Positions 8,395 through 56,003 of a DNA stretch of 64,000 nt are shown here, in pieces. Position numbers and translations under genes: made by a program. This stretch comes from Candidatus Magasanikbacteria bacterium RIFOXYC2_FULL_42_28 (GTDB lineage Bacteria; Patescibacteriota; Patescibacteriia; Magasanikbacterales; GWA2-37-8): the NCBI GenBank assembly GCA_001784435.1, contig MFQZ01000001.1, positions 16,032 to 80,031 on the forward strand. The letters run 5' to 3'. Positions within the stretch are counted from its first letter, which is position 1. Every line of letters starts with the position of its first letter. The notes under the pieces are model-generated. The model made no database searches and had not been told where the DNA came from. It saw only the letters and a program-made list of their open reading frames with translations.

Positions 8395-8421
8395 ATATCA
8401 ATATATCAAAGTTGGGATAAA

Positions 8422-8805
8422 TTAAGTTTTTGTCTCTTTCTTCTTACCGGAAACAGCAGTTTTGCGCACATTACCACGCACGGTGCGGGAGTTAGTTTTG
8501 GTACGTTGACCACGAACCGGCAAATGCTTCATGTGGCGCAATCCAATATAACTTTTGATGTCTTTCAGCCGTTTAATGTTAAACATCACTTCCCGACGCA
8601 AATTGCCTTCAGTGGTATATTCTTTTTCCACAATATCGCGCAATAAATCTTCTTGAGCCGGAGTTAAATCCTTAACGCGGATATTCCAATCAATCTTGGC
8701 TTTTTCCAAAATTTTATTGGTGAGGGTCTGACCGATGCCGTAAACATAGTTCAACGACACGCCGATTTTTTTCTCCTTAGGGATATTTGTTCCTGCAATT
8801 CTCAT
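8422..8805 (-). CDS. rpsM: 30S ribosomal protein S13
   Basis: MRIAGTNIPKEKKIGVSLNYVYGIG N-terminus of S13; the longer ORF to 8880 overlaps rpmJ and is an artefactual extension. Confidence 0.9.
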   Translation of the reverse strand: MRIAGTNIPKEKKIGVSLNYVYGIGQTLTNKILEKAKIDWNIRVKDLTPAQEDLLRDIVEKEYTTEGNLRREVMFNIKRLKDIKSYIGLRHMKHLPVRGQRTKTNSRTVRGNVRKTAVSGKKKETKT

Positions 8806-8845
8806 AAAAACTTTATAAACTTTATGAACTTTAAAAACTTTTATT

Positions 8846-8959
8846 TTAACCTTGTCTTTGTTTATGTTTGGGATTAGCACAAATTACGCGCACCCGACCT
8901 TTGCGGCGCACGGTTTTACACTTTAAACAGATTTTTTTTACTGAAGCTTGTACTCTCAT
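8846..8959 (-). CDS. rpmJ: 50S ribosomal protein L36
   Basis: Manual translation of minus strand: [37 protein letters not shown], classic L36 zinc-ribbon (C-x2-C...C...H); not in the supplied ORF track because <60 aa. Confidence 0.9.
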
Positions 8960-9101
8960 AATCGATTAAATAGAATTTTTTCATTTAAAAAACACCAACC
9001 ACTGCCGCGATATCAGCGCCGGATTCTTTTCTCCCGACTAAGTCGGGATACTGAATCCAACTACACCGCACTGGTTGATACTCCTTAATCTTAATTGAAT
9101 T

Positions 9102-9317
9102 TTAGAATCGAAATGTTATTCGTCCTTTGGTCAGATCGTAAGGCGTCATCTCTACTTTTACGCCATCGCCAATACTAAGACGAATTTTATTAAGGCGCAT
9201 TTTGCCCGACAAATGGGCGATTATTGTTTGGCCGCTTTCGAGGGTTACTCGAAAAGTACCAGCTGGCAATAATTCAGCAATCGTGCCTTTGATTTCAATT
9301 GTGTCTTGTTTTGACAT
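9102..9317 (-). CDS. infA: Translation initiation factor IF-1
   Basis: 71 aa S1-like OB fold, ...[34 protein letters not shown] matches IF-1. Confidence 0.9.
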
Positions 9318-9417
9318 TAATGAAATTTTCGTTCGGGGCTATTTTAAGCCAATTTTATTATTTTGTCAAGGGCGGGATGGCCTGTGGATAACATTTACTA
9401 CCGTTATTACAAACAAT

Positions 9418-9900
9418 TTACTCACTTTTTTGGCTAATTTCAGCTAAATTATCAGGCAAAATAACTACTCTATACACCCAAAATTTATACAAAAAGAAAT
9501 TCCAACTGACCGCAAAAATAACATTTAAAGTCCGCAATATTAAATAGGCAACATCTACTGTGTGGACACCAAACCCTAACGGCCATGATACACCCACCGC
9601 GTCTATCCACAACCACATCCACGCAATTGAAAAAAAATAATTGGCAATTAATAACATAATAAATCTTTTCATCTGACGCGTGGTGTTACCGCTGGATTTA
9701 AAAGACCAAAATTTATGCGCGTAAAACACATAAACAACCACAACAATTTGCCCCAGCGCCACCGCGATTGTCGGTTTTAATTTTAAAAATTCTTTAAAAA
9801 ATATCAAAACGAGAATATCCAAAACAAACGCGCTGCTACCGGCGAGAAAATAATTAATAAAACGATGAACGTAAAGATAGTTGTAAAGTTTTTTAAACAC
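9418..9900 (-). CDS. GtrA-family membrane protein (polysaccharide/glycolipid flippase accessory)
   Basis: 160 aa, four predicted TM helices, size and hydropathy typical of GtrA-like proteins. Confidence 0.5.
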   Translation of the reverse strand: MFKKLYNYLYVHRFINYFLAGSSAFVLDILVLIFFKEFLKLKPTIAVALGQIVVVVYVFYAHKFWSFKSSGNTTRQMKRFIMLLIANYFFSIAWMWLWIDAVGVSWPLGFGVHTVDVAYLILRTLNVIFAVSWNFFLYKFWVYRVVILPDNLAEISQKSE

Positions 9901-41374: not shown

Positions 41375-43789
41375 TTAATTATTTAATAACCAGTTAAGAT
41401 CTTCTAATAGCACGGCATAGGCCGGAGCGGTAATGGCTTTGTCGCGTTTGTTCGTTAATTCTCTTAAAAAGTTTAGCCCTAAAATTTTGTCAATCCTTTG
41501 GGTCAACCTTTCAATTCTTTCCGCTCGTCTAGGGGCGGGAAATTTTGGTGGTTTGGCTTTGATGGTTTCAATTATCATTTCCAAACGAATGGCGTTTTTT
41601 AATTTGTTTATTAAACTATTTTTGGTGGACAAATTTTTTATCCAGCCCAAAATAAACATTTTTTCAATGTCGGCAATAGTACTGGACGGGGTGGCGATTA
41701 GTTGATAAATGATCGTAGCCGTGGCGGTATTGCCGGCGAAATCAGTGGCGGTAGCGAAAAAAATATGGTTGCCTAATTTTTGGGTGAACAAATCAATTGG
41801 CTCGCCCACGACTACTATTTTACCATCTAACGACCAAACCTGCGACTGGATGCCAGAGTCGGCGTCGGTGCTGGAAACGGAAACTGCCAAACTGTCCACG
41901 CGAGTATAATTCTGTGCCAAAGGCGAATTAATAGTTACTATTGGCGAAATAGTATCTCCAGCTGGTTTTACTTCTAAAACAGACGGCTCGGCATTGTCTA
42001 CTATAAACTCCAAATCGGCAATTTCGTCTGACAAAATTGTGCTTTGGTAATTACTACTTACGGATTGGCTATCGCTGACATAACTAGCGACAATCGTGTA
42101 TTCTCCGCCATCACCGGTACCTTGGGCTTGAATTTTATATTCGCCATCCAGTGGGTTTGGAACGGTAATGTATTCGTTGTCTGTAGCAAAACCAGAATAA
42201 AAAGCACCTTCAATTTCGTTGAATTCTTCGCCGGTATTAAAGTCCTTACCTACGCGCTTACCGTCCGGGGCGATGACGACAATGTCGGCTGGGGAGAGGA
42301 TTTTGATGAGGAGAATTTTGACATTGGGAAAATAAGAATGATTAACTTCAACCGGATCGTTAATATCTGATAGCTGACCTATGATTATTTTTTCCGCCTC
42401 GGTTGGTAAATTTCTATGCCCAGAATTATAAACAACCGTGCGTAAATCATTATTGTAGGCACTAACATATCTACTACTGCGCAGAGGAACCGTATCATCT
42501 CCATCGCCTAATTCCAACCCCAAATCAGCGGTTGTACCATCATATCCATCAGGGAATCCATCTTCCCACACTGGCTTAATAGGTGAATCAACTACCCGAA
42601 TCGTGTTTATGGTGTTACTTGTGTCTAAATTACCAACGATATTAAAAATTGAAACGCCGGAATTAAATAATCGATCAATATTAGCGTTTAACTCTTCTAA
42701 AAACGGATTAACCGGATAATTATTGGGATATGCACGCATTTGGCCGGTGCTTTTGTCTTTTAAATAATCATAAATCGGTAACAATTCTTGGGCTGATGCT
42801 ATTGGTTCACGATGAACATAATCAAAAATATCCATATAGCCGGATTTTTTAGCTTCTCTTGAAAAAAATGATTCTTTTAGGTTGTCTTCTATATTAACTC
42901 CAAACTCCTCCGCCTCCCAAGTTAAATACGATGCTGGTGCCCCCAAATGCGGCGTCCCTAAAAATATCAATTGGTCGACATCTTGAATATAATCATCAGA
43001 TTGGATATATTGCCGCGCGACTAATCCACCCATAGAGTGTCCGACCAAATCCACTTTATCGCACTGGCAATTTTCTTTTACCTCATCAATTTTTTCTTTT
43101 AATTGAAAAGCCGTGTCCACATTGGACTGGCGCCACTCATATGGGAAAGTAAATAAATCATAGCCGAGGCGATAACCATTAGCCACGAAAGTATCCACCA
43201 AATTATCATAGGTATGAAAAATAGGATCAATCACCCACTCACCATTTTTTTGTTCGCTTCCCATAACGCCGGGAATAATAATAACCGGATCGCTTTTTAC
43301 ATTTACTTCGTATTCGCCACTCGCGGGCAAGCGCGCGCTATTGCCAAAACTGTCGGTGGTTTCAAAATGAAACGAATAATGTCCGCGTACGAGAGTGGGA
43401 GATGATGTAAAAATATATTCTATGCCACCATAATAACCACAATTTAAATAATTTTCTTCGCCATTGGGACCAAAACCTAACCAACACTGATCCGCACTGG
43501 CGTTTCTGATCATTGGATAAGAGGCACCATCAATAACGACATTGATATCCAGCGGCGCGTCGTTGTCTTGGTCGGTATAAATCATTTTAAAATCCGGCAC
43601 GGAAGAAATATACCAAGAATATGGCTGCTCATCGATATAAAGATTGGCTTGGTCGTAGGTATGCGACAGGGTTGGTGGTTGATTGTCGGGGATTATAATG
43701 GCCGCCTGTATGACCAATGGCGCGAATAAAAACGCAACAAAAAAAGCCACGGAAATCATGACCTTTTTTGACCAAAAATTATGGTTCAT
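41375..43789 (-). CDS. Secreted alpha/beta-hydrolase lipase (GxSxG) with C-terminal Ig-like/Big-type domains
   Basis: Signal peptide MISVAFFVAFLFAPLVIQA; PGVMGS and VGHSMGGLVARQY lipase-class-2/PGAP1-like motifs; C-terminal beta-rich repeats (SVSSTDADSG...). Confidence 0.6.
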   Translation of the reverse strand: MNHNFWSKKVMISVAFFVAFLFAPLVIQAAIIIPDNQPPTLSHTYDQANLYIDEQPYSWYISSVPDFKMIYTDQDNDAPLDINVVIDGASYPMIRNASADQCWLGFGPNGEENYLNCGYYGGIEYIFTSSPTLVRGHYSFHFETTDSFGNSARLPASGEYEVNVKSDPVIIIPGVMGSEQKNGEWVIDPIFHTYDNLVDTFVANGYRLGYDLFTFPYEWRQSNVDTAFQLKEKIDEVKENCQCDKVDLVGHSMGGLVARQYIQSDDYIQDVDQLIFLGTPHLGAPASYLTWEAEEFGVNIEDNLKESFFSREAKKSGYMDIFDYVHREPIASAQELLPIYDYLKDKSTGQMRAYPNNYPVNPFLEELNANIDRLFNSGVSIFNIVGNLDTSNTINTIRVVDSPIKPVWEDGFPDGYDGTTADLGLELGDGDDTVPLRSSRYVSAYNNDLRTVVYNSGHRNLPTEAEKIIIGQLSDINDPVEVNHSYFPNVKILLIKILSPADIVVIAPDGKRVGKDFNTGEEFNEIEGAFYSGFATDNEYITVPNPLDGEYKIQAQGTGDGGEYTIVASYVSDSQSVSSNYQSTILSDEIADLEFIVDNAEPSVLEVKPAGDTISPIVTINSPLAQNYTRVDSLAVSVSSTDADSGIQSQVWSLDGKIVVVGEPIDLFTQKLGNHIFFATATDFAGNTATATIIYQLIATPSSTIADIEKMFILGWIKNLSTKNSLINKLKNAIRLEMIIETIKAKPPKFPAPRRAERIERLTQRIDKILGLNFLRELTNKRDKAITAPAYAVLLEDLNWLLNN

Positions 43790-43835
43790 ATTTTTTCCCT
43801 CCTTTAAAAATAAAATTCAAATATAGTTTTGACGA

Positions 43836-44222
43836 TCACATACTCCCCAATTTCGCCTTAACAATTTTCACCACCGCGTCCGGCCGCACATCCACTTTGG
43901 AAATAAAATCAATCGCTCCCATCGCTACGCCCTTTTCTTTATTGCCGGCCACCCGTACATTGGACAATAGATACACGGGTATATTTTTTGTGGCCGGATT
44001 ACTTTTCATCTCCGCTAAAATATCAAAGCCACTTTTATTATCATCCAATTGCAAATCCAACAATAATAAATCCGGTTTTATTTCCGCAACCATTTTACGG
44101 CCACTGTCAAAAGTATCGGCCGTTATTAAATCCAATCCTTCCACTTTAAATTTCAGCACATACATATTGGTAATTATCGGCTCATCTTCAATTAACAATA
44201 TTTTTACTTTTTTATTGTTCAT
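43836..44222 (-). CDS. Single-domain response regulator (CheY-like receiver)
   Basis: KILLIEDEP...DLLLLDLQL...K receiver motifs with phospho-acceptor Asp. Confidence 0.75.
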   Translation of the reverse strand: MNNKKVKILLIEDEPIITNMYVLKFKVEGLDLITADTFDSGRKMVAEIKPDLLLLDLQLDDNKSGFDILAEMKSNPATKNIPVYLLSNVRVAGNKEKGVAMGAIDFISKVDVRPDAVVKIVKAKLGSM

Positions 44223-44252
44223 ATTTTTTTAAAATAAAAATTAAACGCTTTT

Positions 44253-46058
44253 TTATTTTTTGGCCAAAATTTCCAAGGCCTTGGTCTCGGGTATAACCGG
44301 AATAGCCGGGATAGTAACGGTAAAAGTAGTACCCTTATCCACCCCCGCACTTTCAAGTGTAATCGCGCCATTATGCGCTTTCACAATTTTTCGCGCGATA
44401 AACAACCCCAAACCAGAACCATCCGGATGCACTAACATCGCCCGTTTGGCGCGTTGGAATTTTTGGAATAAATTGCGTTCCTCTTCTTCGCTTACGCCAA
44501 TACCGGTGTCTTTTATTTCAAATACAACATTCTCGCCACTACCATAAACACGCACGGTCGCCCCGCCTTTTTCCGTGTATTGGCAAGCATCATCAATTAA
44601 ATTCATAAATACTTGCAAAAGTAAAGTTGGATCAGCGGGGAAATACGGCGTGAGTTTCTCAGGCGCAATATATTTTAAATATAATTCTTTTTTGTCATAA
44701 TTCGGTTTAAGAGTGTTAATGGCTTCGGCGACTAACTTTTCCACATTAACCGGTACCAATTTTAACGATAACCCCATTTCTGCTTCCATCGCGTCCATTA
44801 AATCGGCGACGATATTCTTCAGACGGTCGGCCGAAATTAACATATTATTCTGCTGTTCTTTTTGTTCTTTGTCCGATAATTTCTCAAAATCGCCGTCGGC
44901 TTGCATTGACAATAAACCAATCATCGCGGACAATGGCGTGCGTAATTGATGCGAGGCAATATCCAAAAATTCGCTTTTTTGTTTGTCTAATTCTTTTAAA
45001 CTGACATTGGCCGTGTCCAATTGATTATTGCTCACTTCCAAAGATTCGGCCAGTCCTTTGAGCGCGGAATTTTTTTCTTTTAAATTTAAATTGGCGTCGT
45101 CTAATTTAAGGTTGGTGCGTTTCAGATCATTGGCAAGTTTGGCCATTTCTTCGCGAGCTTGAATTTCTTTTTTGACAGAACGAACAAGGAAATAGCCGAG
45201 CGTTGTCACTAAAATAAAAGTAAACACAACAACCACACGGACATTTTCTATCCGTCTGATAAATAAAATTGACAGCACTAAAAAGCCAAGTGCGGAAACT
45301 AACGCCTGAGTGCCAAACATTTTAACATTAAATGCGTTAAATTTAACGATAATATAGGCAAGGAAAGCAACAAATACCGGAGCACCGAAGAGGCCATATT
45401 GACCCAGTGTCCAATCTGCGGTAATACTTTGAACCAAATTGCCCCAAGAAAAAGCCAAAAGAAATAAAGAAATCCCCGAAACAATAAGCAATATCTGTTT
45501 CCTAAATTCTTTATCCGCCTTTATATATTTGGCCACAGAAAATATTAACATCCAAATTATAAAAATAAATTCTATAATATAGCCATACTGAACAAGTGCG
45601 CCCTCAATCGCTGCCCTATCGCAGTTAGTGTGGTCAAAGGCGGATACGCCCAAACTGGTCGGGGCGAGTAATACCATCGGCAAAAGCATTAAAGCAATTA
45701 TAATTTTATTTTTAAAATTTATATCTTTTTTATTTATAAATACATAAACAAAATAAAGACAGCCAGCGTAAATTAACGGCTCTATTAGTACTTCCAAAGC
45801 CCAAAATACCATTATCAATTCCGGCTTTTCGCTCGCCCACAAAACTAGGTCGGCATATACCCAAAAAGAAAAAACTGCCAAGATAAAAAATAGTGCTTGA
45901 TTAATTAGTGATTTTTTATCTTTAAGTAAAATAAAAAAACCGATAATCACAGAAAAGATTAGTGGCAGAAGGTGGGAATAGTAAACAAAGCTTCCAAAAA
46001 CATTCGCGGAAATAATTAAAAACTTTGCATTGTCCCAATTGCAAGATAAATAATCCAT
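44253..46058 (-). CDS. Sensor histidine kinase with N-terminal ~7-TM sensing domain
   Basis: H-box HQLRTPLSAM, N/G1/G2 HATPase boxes (DTGIGV, GSGLGL); long polytopic N-terminus. Confidence 0.8.
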   Translation of the reverse strand: MDYLSCNWDNAKFLIISANVFGSFVYYSHLLPLIFSVIIGFFILLKDKKSLINQALFFILAVFSFWVYADLVLWASEKPELIMVFWALEVLIEPLIYAGCLYFVYVFINKKDINFKNKIIIALMLLPMVLLAPTSLGVSAFDHTNCDRAAIEGALVQYGYIIEFIFIIWMLIFSVAKYIKADKEFRKQILLIVSGISLFLLAFSWGNLVQSITADWTLGQYGLFGAPVFVAFLAYIIVKFNAFNVKMFGTQALVSALGFLVLSILFIRRIENVRVVVVFTFILVTTLGYFLVRSVKKEIQAREEMAKLANDLKRTNLKLDDANLNLKEKNSALKGLAESLEVSNNQLDTANVSLKELDKQKSEFLDIASHQLRTPLSAMIGLLSMQADGDFEKLSDKEQKEQQNNMLISADRLKNIVADLMDAMEAEMGLSLKLVPVNVEKLVAEAINTLKPNYDKKELYLKYIAPEKLTPYFPADPTLLLQVFMNLIDDACQYTEKGGATVRVYGSGENVVFEIKDTGIGVSEEEERNLFQKFQRAKRAMLVHPDGSGLGLFIARKIVKAHNGAITLESAGVDKGTTFTVTIPAIPVIPETKALEILAKK

Positions 46059-46088
46059 AAAATAATTGCTTAAATAAATAGTGCTAAT

Positions 46089-46634
46089 TTATTTAGTGGG
46101 TTGTGCACGCTTGTTGGCATGATGCCTATGATAAGCAGTTTGAAAAAATTTTGGAATGTGTGGCAAATAATTGTCAAAAAAAGATTTCGGTAAAAATTGA
46201 ACCGATCTAACTACTTTTCTGCACCTATCGCTTTTGCAAAGACAACGCATATACCATAACTTCTCACTTTCAATGGTAGAATAATCAAGCGTAATTTCCT
46301 CACCCTGTTTGATGTGCTTTAGAGCCACCACAGTAACTGTGCCCTTAATAGCAGAATTGGGGTGGCAAGAATGGTTTAAATATTTAAATGGCACTGCCGG
46401 ATCTATCCACAAATTCTTTTTTATACCTATCCAGTCTTCACCATACATTGCCGTCTTCATGTCTTTAACCACCCAATGAACAAGTTCGCCTTTAATTATT
46501 GCCACTGTCTCACCCTTTTTAATATCTTTAGAGGCAAAAAGGCCAAACCCGTCAATACGGCTCTTAGATATATAAATTTTTTTATGTTTAAAATTTGTTC
46601 TATCCATACACGATTTATAAAATATGACATCCAA
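46089..46634 (-). CDS. SET-domain protein-lysine methyltransferase with post-SET Cys cluster
   Basis: NHSCHPN, EEITLDY, post-SET CLCKSDRC motifs. Confidence 0.7.
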   Translation of the reverse strand: MDVIFYKSCMDRTNFKHKKIYISKSRIDGFGLFASKDIKKGETVAIIKGELVHWVVKDMKTAMYGEDWIGIKKNLWIDPAVPFKYLNHSCHPNSAIKGTVTVVALKHIKQGEEITLDYSTIESEKLWYMRCLCKSDRCRKVVRSVQFLPKSFFDNYLPHIPKFFQTAYHRHHANKRAQPTK

Positions 46635-46654
46635 ATGAATAATAATTCAACCAA

Positions 46655-47032
46655 TTATCCAAATCTATAAAGCAAAGCCAGCGAAAATAATCCGGCGACT
46701 ATTCCAGCAATCTCGTAAGCATTTAAGCGTTCATTAAAAAATAATACGCCAACTATAACCAGTGCCAAAATCGTCGTAACTCCGTAGATAACACCGAGCG
46801 TGCCTAACTTAATATTTTTCATTACAAAAAACCACCCTACTGCAGTTAAAGAATATACCACAAAACCAATTATAAATAATTTATAATCAATATACTTGGT
46901 TTTATCATCGCCCGATAATTTGATAAAATAATCACCCAAAACGCCAACCAAACTTAAAGCGATAACTAATAAAAACGCATAAAAATAACTCATAAAATCA
47001 TCTAAAAAAATAATGACTACGGGGATGCGCAC
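46655..47032 (-). CDS. Small multidrug-resistance/DMT-like 4-TM transporter
   Basis: 125 aa, four TM helices, size/topology of SMR/EamA half-transporters. Confidence 0.45.
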   Translation of the reverse strand: MRIPVVIIFLDDFMSYFYAFLLVIALSLVGVLGDYFIKLSGDDKTKYIDYKLFIIGFVVYSLTAVGWFFVMKNIKLGTLGVIYGVTTILALVIVGVLFFNERLNAYEIAGIVAGLFSLALLYRFG

Positions 47033-47385
47033 TGGTCGGTGCCTTCATCTCCTGAATTCTCGCATAAAAACTCTAAGCAAGAGGCGTCGCCTGTGCAGGA
47101 AGGAATTGGGCAATCGCTAACTTCGCCAGCGCAATTTGGCAAATTATAGGCCTTCTTTTCTATTATTTTGTAATAACTTGTGCGCTCTTCTGGGTCAGCC
47201 GGACATTCGCTGTCTTCGGATGGATCGCACTCAGACACAAAACACCGTTCAGCCAATTGATCGCACGGCACTTGTAAACGAACGTAATAATCACGTTTAT
47301 TTACATAGCGATAATAAACTACCGCAATTGACGCGACTATGGCTGTAAAAAATATTATAAAAAATATTTTAGATTTTTTGTCCAT
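47017..47385 (-). CDS. Cys-rich secreted/membrane-anchored small protein
   Basis: N-terminal TM anchor, 12 Cys in 122 aa (CDQLAERCFVSECD...CAGEVSDCPIPSCTGDASCLEFLC). Confidence 0.35.
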   Translation of the reverse strand: MDKKSKIFFIIFFTAIVASIAVVYYRYVNKRDYYVRLQVPCDQLAERCFVSECDPSEDSECPADPEERTSYYKIIEKKAYNLPNCAGEVSDCPIPSCTGDASCLEFLCENSGDEGTDQCASP

Positions 47386-47477
47386 AATGTTAAAAATGCC
47401 TTAAATTAAGGGTACTTTTACTATATCACATTTTTCAAATATTTACCACCAACATTAACCCATGGATACTAGACGCT

Positions 47478-47503
47478 ATGATTTAAATATATATTTAAAT
47501 CAT
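47478..47503. promoter_or_regulatory. Perfect 26-nt palindrome ATGATTTAAATATATATTTAAATCAT
   Basis: Core ATTTAAATATATATTTAAAT identical to sites at 16525-16544 and 54624-54643; lies between two island genes upstream of the Cys-rich gene. Confidence 0.45.
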
Positions 47504-47506
47504 GAT

Positions 47507-47983
47507 TTAATTTTTGCCTTCAAAATCAATTAATATCTGTAAATAACGCTTTTGTAGTTCAATATTGGCATACTCTGCTGGAAACATTGAAATTTTACCA
47601 CCGTTGTTAATAATATCGTCAATGCCGTCAAAATAAAACCCGTCCAATGTGGCAATAAACAAATAAGACGGATTCCACGATTTACTCATTCGCACGGCGT
47701 CTTCTAAAACATATTTTAAATTTAAATTACGCATATATTTTACCTCAACCAGCTGAACTTTTTTTGTTTTCTGATTGATAACTGCGAAATCTGGTGCTGT
47801 TCGTAGCGTCTCAATAATGTCGTTATTTTTCTTATCGTGTCCTTGTTGGACTAATTCAGGAATTATTTTTTCATAACCAAATTCCAAAACCGTAAAATCT
47901 TTGGTTTCGCGCAACATTTGCGCGAAGATTGTCTCGGCAATTTTACCTTTGACTAAATTTCTGGCAAAAGTTATGTTGCTCAT
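47507..47983 (-). CDS. Small putative PD-(D/E)XK-fold nuclease-like protein
   Basis: Pattern GKIAE...PDFAV...VQLVEVKY resembling the D...(E/Q)xK core of Hjc/Mrr-like nucleases; inference only. Confidence 0.3.
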   Translation of the reverse strand: MSNITFARNLVKGKIAETIFAQMLRETKDFTVLEFGYEKIIPELVQQGHDKKNNDIIETLRTAPDFAVINQKTKKVQLVEVKYMRNLNLKYVLEDAVRMSKSWNPSYLFIATLDGFYFDGIDDIINNGGKISMFPAEYANIELQKRYLQILIDFEGKN

Positions 47984-47986
47984 AAG

Positions 47987-50900
47987 TTATTCAATTACTT
48001 TTTTTAATTCCCAAAAACGATTGCTGCCTTTTACTAACAACTCATTAATTAAATTAACAACACCGTCTTTAGTTTGTGAATTTTTATACAATGTTTTTAA
48101 TGCCGTTGTGATACTATCGCCATAAAGAGAATAAGCAAAATAACCAGGCCCAGCGACCACTTGTTGCATCAAATAAAGCTCCAAAATTATTAAAGTGTCT
48201 TCCGGCGCGGCATTGGCAAAATCCGGCAATCTATTGATGACGCCATGTTCCCATTCAATGTCGCCGTTACTTTTTTCCAACGATTGTTTAAAGTGCAAAA
48301 CCAACCATTTTAAATCTGTAAACAATCTTTGTTTTTCTCCAACCCAAAAACCAAAATAAGCAAAAATTTCATTTTCGCCGTCAATGGGGTTTGCCAAAAT
48401 CCAATCCCACAGGTTACTTAATTTCCCCCTAATAACATCCGCGTTAATTTTATTAACCAACATAAATTCAGCCGGATCATCACGGGATATGAAATGTCGC
48501 CCAATATACGATACGAACTCGCCGTGGCGTTTTTGTCCGGCTGTGTCCCAAAACAATTTAAATATTGGTGAATTAAAATCAAAATTACCATAATGAACAT
48601 AAGCCAAAGCCAAATGAATAGCCAGCCCTTCATCTAATTCTTTGGAATAATGACGCTTGGTATATTCGTTACTTGGCATTTCAATCAAGCGTTTATAAAT
48701 ATTACTCAAATCATCAAATAATTCTTCATACAAATCAGCAGTTAAATAACCCTCAACCGCGGCCAAAAATAAATCCTTTTTTGCTAGCGCAGACGAAAAT
48801 ATTTTGGGAATCATCTTTTTCATCCATTCTTTATCACGATAATAAAAAGTCGGAAGATAACGACCAAATAAAAACATTACCGCGCGAGTATTTTCTATTT
48901 CTAAAATTTGCTCATAAATCTTTTTAACATCTTCGCTAATCTTGGCTATATCTTCTTTGGTAAAATTATTTTTCCCGTCCAAATACACAAATAATGCCAA
49001 CGATTCAAACGCGCGGCCACGGACAGAATTAATAGCGTGAGTGAACGGATCACTGCCGTTTTCAACATTCTCACTTTCTGGATCAGGGTCAGAATGGCGG
49101 AGTAAATATGAAATTATAGCAAGGATCCGTTTCCTATTCTTTTTGAAATCAATCAATTGACCGCTATGTTTACCTGATAAGATAATTTTTAATAACTCGG
49201 AAATTTCACCATGCACGCCCGCCCAATCGACCAACCATGTGCTACCAAGCTCTGCCCTGCCTTTACGCACGCTTAAAAATTGTGTTAGCGCAGAAGAACT
49301 TTTGATAACATCAAACAAATCTAATAGTTTTTCCAAATCGAGGCCGCCACTATACTCGTCTTGACGAATAACTGCTTCAATGCCGTGTAAAAATGAATAG
49401 GTATAATGCTGATCTAAAATATCTCTCTGAAAAAATAAATTAGCATTATCAAGATATGCCCCCGGTCTTTTGGCAATATCCTGCACGAGCATATTGCCCA
49501 TACCGTCGGCACTTAGTGGATTTAAAAAATTCCGTTCTCCATCTTTTTTATATAAACTCTCCGGCGACCATTCCGATAATAATTTATCCACCATCGTTGA
49601 TATTTCCATTTTATTCAACTCCGGCAAATCTATCGGAGCACGCGGTCTGACCATTCCGCCAGTAACAGGTCCGTATCCTGCAATAGGTTCAAATTTTTGA
49701 TCTAATTCTTTGTCAAAAATTTGTTTCGCCATATTTTTTTTCACATCTGTCAAATTATCAAATATACTAGACAGGATTTCCCAGCCATCACTTTTATACA
49801 TTGTTTCATCTTTTTTATCTGTCCGCTCTTTACCGAAATAATTAAAAACCTGCTTAACGTATTCTTCTTTGTCTGTTTTGTCTAAATCAAAAAAGCATTT
49901 ATTTAAGGCATGACAATATTCTGGACTATACAACTCATAATATTTTTCTTCATCAGCGAATATATCAAAAAAAGCTTTTTTCAATTCATCTTTAAACACT
50001 TCCGGACACAAGCTCCATATAAAAAGACGGAAACGATAAAACGATTGAGTATTTGGCAAATTTTTTATATACAAACCATGCAATCTTTGGGCATCGTCGC
50101 ATTTTCCATTGAATAAGGACTTCGCTAATTTGGTAATTGTCGCTGCTAAATCGTGTACATTATCACGCAATGAAAGATGGGCTTTGATATTTAAATCAAG
50201 CACAAAAAAATCAACATCAAACAGATAATAATTTTCTTTGGCATCAAAATATTTACTATCTGATCTGCCGGAAGAAACTGCAATATCTTTTAAAATATTC
50301 AAAAGTAATTTAAATGTCCGCTCTACATAATCGTCGTCTATCAAACTAAGATAATTAAATACTTTTGTATGCTCTAAATCGTTAATATAAAAAGGATTAT
50401 CAGAAAAATTATTGGTTTTATCTCGTTCGGCTTGGCTACGAATTGTTAGCACCGCCTCGGCCAATTCTAACAATCCGCTGTATTCTTTTGCTACAGACAA
50501 TTCTTTGAGTATTTCTTCATATTCAAATCCCCACCGACTAAACGGTGCCAACAGTTTCACCCATTCATTATTCTTTATCATTCCTGTTAATTTTACAATT
50601 TGCGCAGCTGGTAATTTGGAACAAATATGCAAAAAAATATCAACTACTTCCGGATTAAAATTTTTGACCGACATGCTGACAGTCAAAATTATATCCGCGA
50701 CTTTTTCTGGATTATTTTCTGCCATTCGCTCTAAATATCCTAACTCTGGTAAGGAATATGAATATCTAGTTGGATCTGCAGATTTTTGTTTTATAGCGTT
50801 TAAAAAACCGCCATTCCACAACCAGTCAAGCCAACGTTCGTCGGCTTTTGTAAAAAAATATCTATATGCGTCCGAATTAAAAGATAAAATTAAAAAAACT

Positions 50901-51532
50901 CTATCAGCATCAACAAAAAGCGGATCGCAGACAAGAATCCTATCAATTATATTATGAATTGAAATTTGTTGAGGCAGCAATACACACCAAACATTTGTCA
51001 AAATAACAACCAATTTTTTAAAATGAGTGTAGCCAAATTTTGACACATCATAAAGTTCAACTTGTAAATTGTTAATTTTCTTAATAAAATCACTATGTTT
51101 CGACGAATCTCTAAAGTGGTGCGCAATTTGTGTAAAAATAAAATATAAGTCATTCAGAGTAGTAGCAATCTCATCTATCTGCTCCTCGTTGCTATCGATT
51201 TTATTTTCGGCAATTATTTTTTTCAAAAAATCTTTTCTATGCATCTCTCGACTTTCTTTTGGCAGATTGATAATATCATTTTTATACTGATAGAGAATTT
51301 CTCTTAATGAGTGGGCAGCTTGTGATAGATAATCTGGGTTCTTGGAACGATTATTATCGTTTAGTAAAAAAATAGCACCTCTATACAAAATAGATGGTGC
51401 GATAGCAGGACAAAAAATACTGACCCTATTCAGTTTATCCAAATATGATACCAACCACTCGATTTTTTCTTTAGGAATAAAATCTCCACGATCAGAAATA
51501 GCGTCCTTTAATTCGCTGTTCATAATTACCAC
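47987..51532 (-). CDS. Large uncharacterised protein (1181 aa), no recognisable motifs
   Basis: Long uninterrupted ORF tightly packed (3-nt gap) with downstream nuclease-like gene and 63 nt after putative REase; no Walker A/helicase/DDE motifs seen. Confidence 0.5.
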   Translation of the reverse strand: MVIMNSELKDAISDRGDFIPKEKIEWLVSYLDKLNRVSIFCPAIAPSILYRGAIFLLNDNNRSKNPDYLSQAAHSLREILYQYKNDIINLPKESREMHRKDFLKKIIAENKIDSNEEQIDEIATTLNDLYFIFTQIAHHFRDSSKHSDFIKKINNLQVELYDVSKFGYTHFKKLVVILTNVWCVLLPQQISIHNIIDRILVCDPLFVDADRVFLILSFNSDAYRYFFTKADERWLDWLWNGGFLNAIKQKSADPTRYSYSLPELGYLERMAENNPEKVADIILTVSMSVKNFNPEVVDIFLHICSKLPAAQIVKLTGMIKNNEWVKLLAPFSRWGFEYEEILKELSVAKEYSGLLELAEAVLTIRSQAERDKTNNFSDNPFYINDLEHTKVFNYLSLIDDDYVERTFKLLLNILKDIAVSSGRSDSKYFDAKENYYLFDVDFFVLDLNIKAHLSLRDNVHDLAATITKLAKSLFNGKCDDAQRLHGLYIKNLPNTQSFYRFRLFIWSLCPEVFKDELKKAFFDIFADEEKYYELYSPEYCHALNKCFFDLDKTDKEEYVKQVFNYFGKERTDKKDETMYKSDGWEILSSIFDNLTDVKKNMAKQIFDKELDQKFEPIAGYGPVTGGMVRPRAPIDLPELNKMEISTMVDKLLSEWSPESLYKKDGERNFLNPLSADGMGNMLVQDIAKRPGAYLDNANLFFQRDILDQHYTYSFLHGIEAVIRQDEYSGGLDLEKLLDLFDVIKSSSALTQFLSVRKGRAELGSTWLVDWAGVHGEISELLKIILSGKHSGQLIDFKKNRKRILAIISYLLRHSDPDPESENVENGSDPFTHAINSVRGRAFESLALFVYLDGKNNFTKEDIAKISEDVKKIYEQILEIENTRAVMFLFGRYLPTFYYRDKEWMKKMIPKIFSSALAKKDLFLAAVEGYLTADLYEELFDDLSNIYKRLIEMPSNEYTKRHYSKELDEGLAIHLALAYVHYGNFDFNSPIFKLFWDTAGQKRHGEFVSYIGRHFISRDDPAEFMLVNKINADVIRGKLSNLWDWILANPIDGENEIFAYFGFWVGEKQRLFTDLKWLVLHFKQSLEKSNGDIEWEHGVINRLPDFANAAPEDTLIILELYLMQQVVAGPGYFAYSLYGDSITTALKTLYKNSQTKDGVVNLINELLVKGSNRFWELKKVIE

Positions 51533-51595
51533 GTTGTTTTATTTATTTTAGCCATTATTGTGTTCCAACATTTTTTGGTAACAATATCTATATTT

Positions 51596-52654
51596 TTACC
51601 AACTGCCAGCTGTCTTAAGTTTAAAATAGCCCCGCTCTTTAATAAAAGGCAATAGCTCAGAATTAGACGGGAACTCTAAATTAAATTCTCTCTCAACGTC
51701 TCTTAGTAAAAACTTACCGAGATTATTCCTGTATTTATCACTTAAACAAATTTTATACCACTGATCCAGATCGTTCATGGTAATAATGCCTTGAATTTTT
51801 TCGCCCCAGCCCACTTGGGATAATAAGTTTTCTATCGCGGTTTTTTCAGAATCAACACAAACTACCACTATCCTATCGGCGGCAATTCCAGTGGCCACAT
51901 CTTCTATAATTTCAGGTGTCAACGTCAAATGTTTTACCTGGACAGCCAAACCAAAATTAGCCCACATATCCAAACCCCTGTCAGCAGCATTGGCCACGCC
52001 AGCCCTATATAAAGCCGCCGGCAATGTTATTTTGGTATTTTTAGCATCAATTCCCAAAACCATTTTAATAAAAGGCTCAAAATCTTGAAGAAGCTGCTTA
52101 TTGTCATTTAAAATTTCCAAAGTTATTTGCGCGCGCAATGCCCTAACAATTGTAGAAAATAGGGCATAAACTAAAATCTCATAAATTTTATCCGTGCTTC
52201 TTTTTAATCCAGGATCTAAAACAAAAAAATTGACTAACTTTTTTAAATCAAAAGTTGAAGCCGTTGACTTGCTAACATATAAATTCACATCGTGCACAGA
52301 AGACAATCTGGTGTTAAGGGCGTTGTAAATATAGGCCTCCACCAATCCACTTTCCCGTTTATTAAAATTCCCTAAATCACGCAATAAACTTGGCGGTATT
52401 GCGTTAATCTCAAAAATGTTATCCTGAAATTTTTGGCTTGACGTGCAAACTCTGCCGACCAAACGACCAGAAACCTCATCTCGCCATTTTTTTGAAACAT
52501 TGCGATAAGATTCCAAATCAAGAAGAACCCAACGTCTTTTGTCCGTTCTATGGTGAAATAAAATTTCAGCAATTTGAATTGGTTTGTACAAATGAACGCG
52601 TGATTTGCGTATTATTGTATCAAGCGCATTTTTTGCGATATTAATTTTAGGCAT
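51596..52654 (-). CDS. Putative type II restriction endonuclease (context-based)
   Basis: 352-aa ORF overlapping the 3' end of the C5-methyltransferase gene by 8 nt, typical R-M operon arrangement; possible D...QVK catalytic core (DMWANFGLAVQVKH). Confidence 0.35.
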   Translation of the reverse strand: MPKINIAKNALDTIIRKSRVHLYKPIQIAEILFHHRTDKRRWVLLDLESYRNVSKKWRDEVSGRLVGRVCTSSQKFQDNIFEINAIPPSLLRDLGNFNKRESGLVEAYIYNALNTRLSSVHDVNLYVSKSTASTFDLKKLVNFFVLDPGLKRSTDKIYEILVYALFSTIVRALRAQITLEILNDNKQLLQDFEPFIKMVLGIDAKNTKITLPAALYRAGVANAADRGLDMWANFGLAVQVKHLTLTPEIIEDVATGIAADRIVVVCVDSEKTAIENLLSQVGWGEKIQGIITMNDLDQWYKICLSDKYRNNLGKFLLRDVEREFNLEFPSNSELLPFIKERGYFKLKTAGSW

Positions 52655-54422
52655 ACACTCTTTCTTTTTTTATAATTAATGAGTCAATTTTAGAAGATTC
52701 TCTTACTGGCATTTTTTTCATTGCTTCTACCATCGCGCGAGCAACCGCTTGAATTTTTGGAACGACAACGCTATTACCGGCCTGCTTCCGCGCTTGTGTA
52801 TCAGGAACAACAATACGAAAAGTATCTGGAAAACCTTGGAGACGCAACAGCTCTCTTGGTGTCAAACGTCTTTCCCCATTAACTGTCAGATAATTATAAG
52901 AACCGTTGGCTCTTAAGGCACACGAGTATGGGTGCATTCCGATATTACCACCCTTATTTTCATGCCAGACAGACGGCTTTGGTGCCGGCACTTTCCCCTG
53001 CTCTACCAACCTCTTCTGCAATTTTTGTTTAAAACTTTCACTCAAATAATGTTTTTTATCTATCTGACTTTTTGGTTCCAAAATATCAGATAGCGTTTTC
53101 GTCTCTGAAACACCCGTGGGAAACTCAAAAGGATAATTTTCCTTGAAACCAACTATGATTATACGCTCTCTTTTCTGCGGGACACCAAAGTCAAGACCGT
53201 TGAGAACATTAAAGTGAACAAAGTATCCCAAACTTTTCAAAGATTCTATAATTATTTTAAATGTGCGCCCATCATCATGCGAAGTTAATTGTTTAACATT
53301 CTCCAACAAAAAAGCTTTCGGCTGTTTGGCTTTTAATATTCTTTCAACATCAAAAAATAAAGTGCCGCGAGTATCAGCGAACCCTCGTTTTTTGCCAATT
53401 ATACTAAACGCTTGGCAGGGAAAACCGCCGGTGAGGATATCGTGATCAGGTATTTCGTCCGCAGAAATTTTTGTTATATCTCCGTGTGGTTTATCCCCAA
53501 AATTTGCTTCATACATAACTTGACACGGCTCATCAAATTCGGATGTAAATACACACTTGCCGCCATTGCGTTCAAAAGCAATTCTGACACCGCCGATGCC
53601 AGCGAATAAATCTATAAAACGAAATGAGTTATTGTCGGTTGAAAAATCATCATTCAAATTACTTTTATAAAAATATGCTCGTCTTGTGTCTGTAAGTAGA
53701 CTAAACAAAGAAACTTGCAAACCTTCCGCGACATACTCGGCATTAACAAATTCTGTATTATTTATTTCAGCTAATACGCTATGTGCGTGGTCTTTTGACA
53801 CTATAATAAAATCATCAACATTAACACCCATTAATTGTCCGGCCTCGGCAATTCTTTTAACTACCTGCTTGTCTTCATCACTTGGACTCACATCACCGGA
53901 AGGGTGATTATGAATAACAATCACGCTCGCGGCTCGAAGTTCTATCGCCAGTGCAAAAATTTCGCGAGGGTGAACAATATTTTTATCAAGCGTCCCAATA
54001 AAAATTGTTTCTTTCTTTATCAATGCTTTGCGCGCATTTAAATACAAACAAACAAGATGTTCTTGTTTTTTATCTTTCAAATCGGCGACTAATTTAACCG
54101 CATCTTTTGCAGATAGAACCAAATCATCGGGAGCATTTTGTCTGTCATTAAGTCTTTTTGCAAGTGCCACCATGGAAAGAATCTGTAAGGCCTTTGCCTG
54201 TCCGATTCCGTGAATCTTCATTAAATCTTCAACCGAGACATTTATCAAATTATCACCAAACTTTTTAAGAATTTTTTGCGCCAAAACTTTAACGTTAACA
54301 TTTTTGGTGCCGCTTCCAAGTTGAATAGCTAAAAGTTCACCATCGGTTAAGGCATCTGGTCCTTTTTCTAAAAATTTTTCTCTGGGGCGGTCAAATTTTG
54401 GTGTATCTTTTAATTTTGTCAT
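52647..54422 (-). CDS. Fusion protein: RadC-like JAB/MPN domain (N-term) + DNA (cytosine-5)-methyltransferase (C-term)
   Basis: RadC HhH + JAMM motif VIVIHNHPSGDVSPSDED; C5-MTase motifs I FIDLFAGIGG, IV GFPCQAFS, VI ENV, VIII QKRERIIIVG, X GNSVVVP; single uninterrupted 591-aa ORF. Confidence 0.8.
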   Translation of the reverse strand: MTKLKDTPKFDRPREKFLEKGPDALTDGELLAIQLGSGTKNVNVKVLAQKILKKFGDNLINVSVEDLMKIHGIGQAKALQILSMVALAKRLNDRQNAPDDLVLSAKDAVKLVADLKDKKQEHLVCLYLNARKALIKKETIFIGTLDKNIVHPREIFALAIELRAASVIVIHNHPSGDVSPSDEDKQVVKRIAEAGQLMGVNVDDFIIVSKDHAHSVLAEINNTEFVNAEYVAEGLQVSLFSLLTDTRRAYFYKSNLNDDFSTDNNSFRFIDLFAGIGGVRIAFERNGGKCVFTSEFDEPCQVMYEANFGDKPHGDITKISADEIPDHDILTGGFPCQAFSIIGKKRGFADTRGTLFFDVERILKAKQPKAFLLENVKQLTSHDDGRTFKIIIESLKSLGYFVHFNVLNGLDFGVPQKRERIIIVGFKENYPFEFPTGVSETKTLSDILEPKSQIDKKHYLSESFKQKLQKRLVEQGKVPAPKPSVWHENKGGNIGMHPYSCALRANGSYNYLTVNGERRLTPRELLRLQGFPDTFRIVVPDTQARKQAGNSVVVPKIQAVARAMVEAMKKMPVRESSKIDSLIIKKERVYA

Positions 54423-54623
54423 AATTTAAAAAACCTGCCAATGCTTATAAAAATCTACAATGCATATGCCGACCGTTTGTGGCCATTTAGTCGGTGAGTG
54501 TAATTTGGTACCCAGACGATAATATTCTACCACAATTCGCCAAACCAATCAACAACGAAGGGATGATTGCTTTTGACCAATTAGTTGCGTTAATTGAGAT
54601 AATAAACCGCAATAATTTATCCT

Positions 54624-54968
54624 AATTTAAATATATATTTAAATACTAATACGCCCCACACACCGCCCACCCAAACAAGCCCGCCCAATACACCCACCCG
54701 CCTCTGGCGGGGACAAGCAAAAAGTAATTTTCAATACAAACGGACAGGGGGGGCTGGTCGCGGACAATTTGCCACGACTTGGTCGGGGCAAACGGGTTCG
54801 CGGTTTCCGCTTTTTCTTTCAGAAAAAAACAAACTTGTTTGTTCGCCAGTCCGCTGGACTGGCAGGCGGAAACTCGATTGCTGGCCAATAATATTTTTTT
54901 CAAAAAAGGTTCGCACGTCGTTCAGTGACTGCGACAAAACAAAAAAGAAAGTGGGTGCTTTCTTTTTT
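54624..54968. repeat. Right copy of ~340-bp inverted repeat (IR-R); inner end is the 28-nt AT palindrome string, outer end hairpin aaaaaagaaagtgggtgctttctttttt
   Basis: Reverse complement aligns with 40029-40370; hairpin maintained by compensatory pairs (gccagtcc-agcg-ggactggc vs ccccgtcc-ggcg-ggacgggg). Confidence 0.85.
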
Positions 54969-54992
54969 GTTTGTTTTAAATTTTAATTTTAT

Positions 54993-56003
54993 CTACCCGC
55001 AAATCGTCTCAATCAGCTTAGCACAAACCTGATACGGATCCATATTGGCGGCCGGACGCCGATCTTCCAAATACCCCATCCCGCTATTGGCTGTGGCCAT
55101 TGGGATGCGAATAGACGCGCCCCGATCAGAAACGCCATAACGAAAATCCGTCATACTGGAAGTTTCGTGTTTGCCGGTTAGCCGTTCTTCGTTGTGAGCG
55201 CCGTAAACCGCGATGTGCTCGCTATGCTTTAATTTTAATTTCTCGCAAGCGGCTTTGACAACTTCAATTCCGCCCGGAGCACGCATCGCATTAGTAGAAA
55301 AATTAGTGTGCGCTCCCGCTCCGTTCCAATCCCCTTTTACCGGTTTGGGGTCAAGCGTGGCTGACACTTTAAAATCTTCGGCAACGCGATACAATAACCA
55401 CCGACAAAGCCACAGCTGGTCGGCGGCCGCGAGCGGTCCAAGTGGTCCCACTTGAAATTCCCACTGCCCGGGCATAACTTCGGAATTGATACCAGAAAGC
55501 GTGATACCGGCTTTTAAACACAGCTCCATGTGTTTCTCTACAATCGGCCGGCCAAACACTTCATCCGCGCCCACACCGCAATAATATCCGCCCTGCGGGG
55601 CCGGGAAACCATTGCTGGGCCAACCCAGAGGTTTGACGCCCTCAAAAAAAGTATATTCTTGTTCAATACCAAACCAACTGTCATGACTTTTAAATTCTTC
55701 GGCTACGCCACGCAAATGCGCGCGGGTATTGCTCACGTGCACTGAACCATCAGCATTTAACACTTCACATAATACCAAAATATTTTCCCCGCCGCGAATG
55801 GGATCAGGAATATAAGTAGCGGGCTTTAATTGGCAGTCACTAAAATGACCTTCGGCCTGATAGGTACTGGAACCATCAAATCCCCAATCCGGTAAATCAG
55901 CCAAAGAACGAACCGGCCCATCCACGATTTTCGTTTTTGAGCGTAATTTGGCGCTGGGCTTTTGCCCGTCCACCCAAATGTACTCGGCCATGATTTTGGA
56001 CAT
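54993..56003 (-). CDS. glnII: Glutamine synthetase type II (eukaryote-like GSII)
   Basis: 336 aa; MAEYIWVDG N-terminus and overall collinearity with GSII rather than dodecameric GSI. Confidence 0.75.
   Translation of the reverse strand: MSKIMAEYIWVDGQKPSAKLRSKTKIVDGPVRSLADLPDWGFDGSSTYQAEGHFSDCQLKPATYIPDPIRGGENILVLCEVLNADGSVHVSNTRAHLRGVAEEFKSHDSWFGIEQEYTFFEGVKPLGWPSNGFPAPQGGYYCGVGADEVFGRPIVEKHMELCLKAGITLSGINSEVMPGQWEFQVGPLGPLAAADQLWLCRWLLYRVAEDFKVSATLDPKPVKGDWNGAGAHTNFSTNAMRAPGGIEVVKAACEKLKLKHSEHIAVYGAHNEERLTGKHETSSMTDFRYGVSDRGASIRIPMATANSGMGYLEDRRPAANMDPYQVCAKLIETICG

Follow-up and report, generated by a model that had tools for sequence, protein, structure and literature searches.

A HaeII-type restriction-modification pair, an undescribed helical-repeat family and a minimal nuclease in a probable mosaic defence island of a Magasanikbacteria genome

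HaeII is a Type II restriction-modification (R-M) system in which R.HaeII and M.HaeII recognize RGCGC^Y, and pairs of this type are self-sufficient, needing no third subunit. A pair that resembles it opens a block of four genes, here called g1 to g4, at 47507-54422 on the minus strand of a 64,000-nucleotide stretch of contig MFQZ01000001.1 from Candidatus Magasanikbacteria bacterium RIFOXYC2_FULL_42_28; this whole stretch is referred to as the window. An original prediction had described four tightly packed, co-directional genes at this place, and its open reading frames (ORFs) and coordinates were confirmed. It had also taken the block for one novel four-gene defence system. We consider it more probable that three modules, each mobile on its own (the R-M pair g1-g2, g3 and g4), have come together in a mosaic defence island and are co-transcribed here, with g3 as a second-line defence gene appended to R-M.

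Several other described systems share traits with the block. R-M-linked HEPN proteins have been proposed to provide a suicidal back-up once restriction has been neutralised (Anantharaman et al. 2013, PMC3710099). Like these proteins and like PrrC and RloC, g3 appends a predicted nucleic-acid-targeting helical domain to several R-M types, but the likeness is one of logic and not of sequence: g3 has neither an ABC ATPase nor an Rx4-6H motif, matches no Pfam HEPN family and consists for the most part of a HEAT solenoid. It also differs from the repeat sensors of the Avs/STAND type, as no NTPase domain was found in g3 with Pfam, NCBIfam or PADLOC, its model is made throughout of helical repeats of a HEAT/karyopherin-like kind, and the sequences are not similar. 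DISARM, BREX and Hma combine a methyltransferase (MTase) with large accessory proteins, as the block does, but the window contains no DrmA/B/C/E, PglZ, BrxC or HmaC, and g3 and g4 match no model of these systems. Among the four proteins only g1 matches such models (DrmMII/DruM), which is expected of a C5 MTase, in agreement with the earlier statement that BREX and DISARM signatures are absent. Measured against what is already known, the R-M pair is familiar, the fusion of g1 to RadC is a common variant in the Candidate Phyla Radiation (CPR), and g4 adds a new member to an established superfamily. The g3 family is undescribed, and its context suggests a new variant of the R-M-linked accessory theme.

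Judged by their sequences, g1 and g2 are a conventional HaeII-type Type II R-M pair. g2 (51596-52654, minus strand, 352 aa) is assigned to the HaeII family of Type II restriction endonucleases (REases): it matches RE_HaeII (PF09554) end to end, its residues 7-343 aligning with the whole profile (1-338 of 338; E 3.2e-124), as well as the PADLOC model REase_II (E 5.9e-118), and is 84% identical in amino acids to the REase of a related locus, L172. The earlier view that this ORF has no recognizable family is thus incorrect. Directly upstream, and overlapping g2 by 8 nt, lies the cognate C5 cytosine DNA MTase, M.HaeII-like, which forms the C-terminal half of g1 (52647-53654, minus strand). It covers positions 1-323 of the 324 in PF00145 (E 9.5e-97) and matches TIGR00675 (332 bits) and PADLOC MTase_II (E 2e-123).

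What sets g1 (52647-54422, minus strand, 591 aa) apart from the HaeII system is that its MTase is fused to a complete RadC module. The N-terminal half (53733-54422, minus strand) carries UPF0758_N (PF20582, E 1.3e-22), a helix-hairpin-helix (PF00633, E 2.4e-5) and a RadC-type JAB domain (PF04002, E 7.7e-36), and it scores 219 bits with NCBIfam NF000642, whose cut-off is 180. The JAB metal-site motif is intact, HNHPSG...PSDED (of the HxHPSG...S..D type; HNHPSGDVSPSDED in the g1 translation), which places this half in the RadC family. Pfam and NCBIfam therefore agree with the original prediction of a RadC::Dcm fusion with a canonical C5 MTase. The fusion is common in CPR bacteria and not peculiar to this locus: both domains are encoded together in about 85 of the 120 best clusters, nearly all of them from CPR bacteria, and unfused Dcm proteins with 75-78% identity to the MTase half of g1 exist too. 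A non-exhaustive literature search found no description of it in the deaminase/JAB survey (PMC3239186). Present in hundreds of clusters, it provides a second handle on RadC function.

The same MTase-REase pairing is found in the two closest cassettes. L172 consists of a transposase, a helix-turn-helix (HTH) C-protein, RadC::Dcm, R.HaeII and Vsr, while L173 consists of a C-protein, RadC::Dcm and R.HaeII; neither has g3 or g4. Conversely, Vsr and C-protein genes were not found in the window, the latter also not by tblastn, and for g1-g2 the site RGCGCY is a prediction only. A more distant RadC::Dcm, in L174, is paired with R.HpaII and Vsr beside a CBASS module. There (L174, 7001-11702), RadC::Dcm, R.HpaII and Vsr are directly followed by a CD-NTase and a Cap15-like effector, so that in this CPR case, too, further defence modules are lined up after a RadC::Dcm cassette. 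It should also be noted that L172 has a second, stand-alone RadC a few kb from its RadC::Dcm cassette (8410-9690), after which come genes for an NYN-domain RNase and a Type I HsdR; RadC is recurrent in the defence-island settings of CPR bacteria.

A single conserved four-gene operon is rejected on the basis of reciprocal co-occurrence and by the neighbours of the closest relatives. Within 10 kb of g3 in 80 loci, g4 and the HaeII REase were each found 0 times, Dcm twice and RadC once, and among 84 g4 loci no g3 homolog was found (0/84). The three closest relatives of g3 (52-58% identity) have other neighbours. At the nucleotide level, similarity to L172 and L173 spans the g1 start codon to about 40 nt past the g2 stop (54423-51553). 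Given that similarity breaks exactly at the module borders, we conclude that the block is a mosaic of R-M pair, g3 and g4.

The sole other g3-g4 junction is found in L176, where the two genes are 99% identical to those of the window and have the same 3-nt spacing. Similarity to the window stops at 47510, directly behind g4, where L176 continues with tRNA-synthetase genes. Hence g3 and g4 were recently transferred as a unit, and the border of the island coincides with the end of g4. In the g4 copy of L176 (599-1071) the reading frame shifts near codon 141, and the annotated product has 150 aa; either decay of this copy or an error in the assembly may be the cause.

That the four genes work as one integrated novel defence system, with the MTase for self-marking, an REase, g3 as sensor and g4 as nuclease effector, is in our view highly improbable. 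In its favour are the joint transfer of g3 and g4, the tight spacing and the lack of a terminator between the genes, and an Mrr or other PD-(D/E)xK gene that follows g3 closely in roughly 3-5 loci. Against this stand the co-occurrence counts in both directions, the differing neighbours of the closest g3 relatives, the closest R-M cassettes without g3 and g4, the coincidence of module borders with similarity breaks, and the self-sufficiency of HaeII-type pairs. Of the original prediction, the relation to defence and the uncharacterised state of g3 can be retained, and the single conserved system cannot. The PADLOC search that it had recommended matched g1 and g2 (MTase_II and REase_II), gave for g3 only PbeC at E 0.01, and gave nothing for g4. 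Recognizing the ordinary nature of most of the block prevents a false claim of a new four-gene system.

The part of the block that departs most from described systems is g3 (47987-51532, minus strand, 1181 aa, GTG start; in the public record the start is placed 3 codons later, giving 1178 aa). Its family comprises about 350 sequence clusters at 50% identity. A search of 185,579 species genomes yielded 135 relatives with a scattered distribution that takes in CPR lineages, Caldilineaceae, Nitrospirales, Aminicenantes, Omnitrophota, Poribacteria and others. Our non-exhaustive search of the literature did not find the family described. Among the 64 g3 loci with at least 3 kb of upstream sequence, 25 have a DNA MTase no more than 4.5 kb upstream on the same strand. 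MTases, detected by motif regular expressions and BLAST, make up 26 of the 98 near-upstream ORFs versus 9 of the 383 ORFs elsewhere in the same g3 loci (odds ratio 15, p 9e-13, the latter optimistic as loci from related genomes are not independent). The co-occurrence of g3 homologs with MTases in other genomes, which the original prediction had proposed to check, is thereby found, and the homologs are not routine in non-defence contexts, as R-M genes are strongly enriched nearby.

The association is also directional. At least ten kinds of R-M genes lie directly before g3 on the same strand: an HKD-SNF2 nuclease-helicase with an Eco57I-type MTase and target recognition domain (the MTase in 15 loci, both genes visible in 7), Type III Mod with Res, DpnII with Dam, NgoPII, HpaII, an EcoRI MTase, Type ISP/IIG-like enzymes, an NmeDI-type REase, and complete Dcm-REase-Vsr cassettes (L003, L011 and L022). 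The start codon of the g3 unit often overlaps the preceding gene; in the window g3 starts 63 nt after R.HaeII and is co-directional with it. g3 is always the last gene of its string, and no conserved downstream partner was found in the g3 loci. This placement, after at least ten kinds of R-M genes and across phyla that range from CPR to Chloroflexi and Nitrospirae, is far from random. Around g3 there are serine recombinases, an integrase, modules of the toxin-antitoxin (TA) and abortive infection (Abi) kinds (PemK/SocA and AbiEi), a KAP NTPase and HsdM, and in some loci g3 is cargo of serine-recombinase or integrase elements.

One string recurs among these loci, namely an HKD(PLD)-SNF2 helicase, an Eco57I-type N6A MTase with TaqI_C, and g3, with stop and start codons overlapping (L056, 3048-13500; also L060, L061, L070, L009, L038 and L051). 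Its first two genes match the DrmD, BrxH, HmaA and DrmMI models of DISARM, BREX and Hma, only partially. The string may be a distinct R-M-like system with g3 as third component.

The distribution also bears on whether g3 is defensive at all. Lacking an enzymatic domain and any match to a defence model, it could be cargo of mobile elements that serves element maintenance, anti-defence or as a generic scaffold, and that merely rides in variable islands where R-M systems accumulate. Its presence on recombinase-bounded elements would agree with this, as would the Caldilineaceae copies, which sit beside metabolic genes at the edge of defence/mobile-type genes, and three g3 matches in IMG/VR, on contigs classed as viral. 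However, all three of these contigs are recombinase-bounded integrative elements that carry R-M and g3, and g3 has no PHROG match. Moreover, the link to R-M is one of position and direction (same strand, immediately downstream, often overlapping) and not of mere co-residence, and the enrichment was measured for near-upstream positions against the rest of the same loci. We therefore regard a non-defensive cargo gene as quite unlikely. A phage origin of the genes is ruled out, as g4 is absent from the viral contigs of IMG/VR and the three g3 matches are R-M islands and not obvious phages.

No family in Pfam, PADLOC, NCBIfam or PHROGs was matched by g3, and it is thereby ruled out as a known defence protein; PDB sequence profile searches gave no match for the full-length protein or for its N-terminal module. 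This agrees with the original prediction of a protein without ATPase, helicase or known motif. The AlphaFold model is confident (predicted local distance difference test score, pLDDT, 86) and entirely helical, and Foldseek retrieved karyopherins, CRM1 and CAND1 at low template-modelling scores. Among the structural matches are also long HEAT solenoids that are DNA-associated, such as Pds5 and FANCD2/FANCI. The structure prediction that had been recommended thus yields a HEAT-like helical solenoid and no known enzyme. On this model the core of about 1000 residues (aa ~201-1181; 47987-50932, minus strand) is predicted to be a HEAT/karyopherin-like alpha-solenoid only, with no enzymatic fold, and to act as sensor or scaffold.

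Proteins of the family fall into two length classes, since the initial ~190 residues are a module of their own. In the window this N-module is a helical bundle (aa 1-~200; 50933-51532, minus strand), predicted to be the effector or enzymatic module, and it is fused to the core. The module is present in 74 of 78 related loci, being fused in 19 and a separate, translationally coupled ORF just upstream in 55, where it often overlaps the core ORF by 4 nt. In its main type (clusters C0, C10 and C13) R77 and H138 are invariant and S75, E78 and A53 nearly so, and alignments A4 and A5 show the motifs PS-MFRGA, NPDW--QAAHSLREILYP, AAHSLREILY, AHH and RQxDxHxxID. A profile search against 1.84 billion representatives matched 353 proteins. 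The 150 best of these are mostly small stand-alone proteins (~170-250 aa) or proteins of ~1100-1300 aa, with the module N-terminal in nearly all, and it follows that the module is dedicated to the g3 core and not shuffled among architectures.

The nearest described family is pP_pnuc_1 (PF18165), a predicted pPIWI-associating nuclease. It was matched by 14 of 47 N-modules (E <=0.1, at best 1.7e-4), always in the same segment, the AAHSLRE helix and the preceding one, and no other family recurs; both are small all-helical domains from conflict-system contexts. Nevertheless, the best relative, P0066, reaches 24.7 bits and the window copy 15.4 bits (E 0.015), and no g3 N-module attains the gathering cut-off of 26.3 bits. 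A PIWI gene was not found among the 25 commonest upstream or the 25 commonest downstream families of g3. HEPN and HD domains were considered and ruled out, as A4 and A5 show neither Rx4-6H nor an H..HD..D pattern; R77 and H138 are 60 residues apart, and the N-module has no HEPN-clan match in Pfam.

In about a fifth of the loci, the upstream ORF is a different protein without detectable homology to the N-module (hhalign <1%). A transmembrane-like hydrophobic N-terminus is found in 8 of 10 such replacement modules of the C12-like kind, which suggests from sequence that they are a membrane-anchored alternative partner of the solenoid. Examples are L031 (9279-9995), L004, L007, L044, L054, L062 and L077, where the Kyte-Doolittle mean over 19 residues is 1.8-2.6.

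This modular build has to be weighed against a further explanation, in which g3 is an accessory subunit or regulator of restriction, for instance the DNA-embracing HEAT scaffold of the HKD-SNF2 plus Eco57I-type system, that spread later to other systems. The commonest context of g3 is indeed directly after an Eco57I-type MTase (15 of 78 loci, 7 of them with HKD-SNF2, with overlaps of 4-29 nt), and both its constant place at the end of the string and its resemblance to the DNA-associated Pds5 and FANCD2/FANCI would suit a subunit. Yet the R-M systems linked to g3, which include at least six families of Type II as well as Type III, IIG/ISP and HKD-SNF2, have no subunit in common, Type II pairs need no third one, many g3 loci have no R-M genes nearby, and the swappable N-modules look like effectors and not like adaptors. 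Such a role thus appears unlikely.

The reading we prefer, R-M-appended defence within a mosaic island, can be put as follows. The C5 MTase of g1 would protect host sites of the RGCGCY type, and the g2 endonuclease would cut unmodified incoming DNA. The g3 unit would typically join R-M operons, whatever their type, at the 3′ end as a second-line, R-M-linked defence gene, in which the solenoid may serve as a sensor or scaffold that binds protein or nucleic acid. The role of effector would fall to the exchangeable N-module, which in the window is helical, with an invariant Arg/His/Glu/Ser cluster and a distant likeness to the predicted nuclease pP_pnuc_1. g4 would act as a stand-alone PD-(D/E)xK endonuclease that tends to the 3′ end of MTase, defence or DNA-repair strings. 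We infer the defensive role of g3, and the division of labour between sensor and effector, from its directional association with R-M systems of unrelated types, its sporadic occurrence on mobile DNA and the effector-typical swapping of modules. The domain identities, the folds, the statistics of gene neighbourhoods and the borders of the modules are direct results.

How g3 would be triggered is a matter of more tentative reasoning. Since the partner systems share no subunit, masking of g3 by an R-M enzyme, in the manner of PrrC and EcoprrI, is unlikely to be general, and sensing of a phage factor appears the likelier option. One possibility, to which we give clearly less than even weight, is that the g3 family is an undescribed, phylum-spanning anti-phage module that guards R-M: the solenoid would respond to a phage factor, such as a protein that blocks restriction or an effect of restriction having failed, and release the exchangeable N-terminal effector, either the Arg/His helical predicted nuclease or the membrane-anchored protein, which would make g3 an NTPase-free sensor-effector. 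If g3 is indeed such a guard or back-up of restriction, a HEAT-repeat sensor architecture without NTPase would be added to bacterial immunity, and this would help to explain the layering of defences in CRISPR-poor CPR bacteria.

A number of observations weigh against the mosaic and defence interpretation. The role of g3 and g4 in defence is deduced from gene association only, and about 60% of g3 loci have no MTase within 4.5 kb upstream, although the MTase detector is imperfect and probably undercounts. The dependence among loci from related genomes, noted above for the enrichment, belongs here too, as do roughly 20 Caldilineaceae loci that border metabolic genes on one side. No sequence resembles pP_pnuc_1 above threshold in its N-module, and the nuclease nature of pP_pnuc_1 has itself only been predicted. 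Finally, g3 and g4 travel together in the 99%-identical copy of L176 despite a different downstream flank, and a few g3 loci have the downstream Mrr or other PD-(D/E)xK gene already mentioned. Locally, g3 may thus be linked in function to a small nuclease.

Across its family, g4 is not a dedicated partner of g3. The gene (47507-47983, minus strand, 158 aa) is predicted to encode a minimal, stand-alone PD-(D/E)xK nuclease: E17, P64-D65 and E80-x-K82 are invariant and form the E...(P)D...(D/E)xK signature on an alpha-beta-beta-beta-alpha-beta core, in line with the possible PD-(D/E)XK core proposed originally. Among the 158 columns 59 are invariant, and identity is about 70% over hundreds of clusters, making this an unusually conserved minimal nuclease of CPR islands; the family has about 800 clusters in total. 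The best structural match is Hjc. Compared with archaeal Hjc and the minimal nucleases of the I-Ssp6803I type, however, g4 has only 14-20% identity, extra helices at 37-61 and 141-155, and no match to the Pfam Hjc or Vsr families (nor to any PADLOC model). Its context is also different, consisting of bacterial (CPR) R-M, defence and repair islands and not of recombination operons or introns. g4 is ruled out as a Vsr, being no member of PF03852 and unrelated to Vsr in sequence.

In most cases g4 closes a string of genes on one strand, and MTases are enriched just upstream of it (10/91 vs 1/120); only 6 nt separate an 88%-identical relative from the end of the Eco57I/TaqI_C-type gene before it. 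Its neighbours include Type I R-M with YgjP, a DUF4011-SF1 helicase-REase with DUF2779, a string of uracil-DNA glycosylase (UDG) and LexA-like S24, Eco57I-type MTases, Dcm, AAA_5 with VWA, and TA and Abi genes. Some of these neighbours, together with the extreme conservation for an island gene, the Hjc-like structure and the fact that g4 fills the slot of Vsr in the sister cassettes, could mean that g4 is a DNA-repair or recombination enzyme, either a Vsr analogue for methylation-caused lesions or an Hjc-like junction resolvase. The UDG/LexA-like string and the company of DUF2779 and DUF4011-helicase nucleases would fit. But g4 is unrelated to Vsr in sequence and has no Pfam Hjc match, Dcm lies upstream in only 3 of 45 loci with N6-type MTases as frequent, the neighbourhoods differ widely and also hold TA and Abi genes, and a family of about 800 clusters is accessory, not universal. 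A repair role is therefore possible but on balance doubtful, and a stand-alone nuclease of defence and repair strings remains our preferred description of g4.

Two features of g4 neighbourhoods are recorded in addition. Relatives of g4 often follow a giant protein made of DUF4011, an SF1 helicase (AAA_11/AAA_12) and an MTES_1575 REase, together with a DUF2779 nuclease (L087, 2180-7096; L105, L122, L142, L144 and L149), a recurrent and uncharacterised nuclease-helicase neighbourhood. In L177 (607-1613), a MazE-like antitoxin ORF of 58 aa and a 273-aa protein lie downstream of a g4 relative; the latter contains an RDNANH motif (Rx4H, HEPN-like) and has no precomputed Pfam or PHROG match.

The local distribution of restriction sites was also considered. 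In the 12 kb from 43135 to 55196, no RGCGCY site was observed where about 7 were expected from local composition, and zero was reached in none of 500 simulations; this stretch was identified post hoc. It contains 32 GCGC cores, none of them in RGCGCY context, and its G+C content is lower (0.34-0.39 versus about 0.41). Over the whole window RGCGCY is not avoided, with 60 sites versus 52 expected. The absence of sites from the island fits both a HaeII-like specificity and a foreign island of lower G+C. The site-free stretch reaches about 4 kb past the island border as set by L176.

As for transcription, g1 and g2 overlap by 8 nt, and the gaps are 63 nt between g2 and g3 and 3 nt between g3 and g4. 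No convincing terminator was found between the four genes, the scan being at the level of shuffled sequence (8 found versus 7.4 expected). A strong terminator-like hairpin with a T-run and a 16-bp stem (54937-54972, strand not assigned), found by sequence and terminator scan, belongs to the upstream gene at 54993-56003, and the block thus starts its own transcription unit. Co-transcription of the four genes is plausible, and the single operon that had been predicted is accordingly probable. The non-coding leader and promoter region (54423-54936, minus strand) has promoter-like sites at 54552-54524 and 54441-54413, and no Rfam family was matched in the 570-nt leader. At the island borders in the window, no tRNA, recombinase or C-protein gene was found.

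Between the terminator of the upstream gene and the promoter region of g1 there is a G+C-rich non-coding stretch of ~250 nt (about 54650-54900, minus strand) with local hairpins, e.g. CCCGCCAGAGGCGGG, whose ORFs look spurious. Just downstream of the island lies a SET-domain-like ORF of 181 aa (46089-46634, minus strand; NHSCHPN ... EEITLDYS), which is adjoined by a histidine kinase and response regulator pair (43836-46058).

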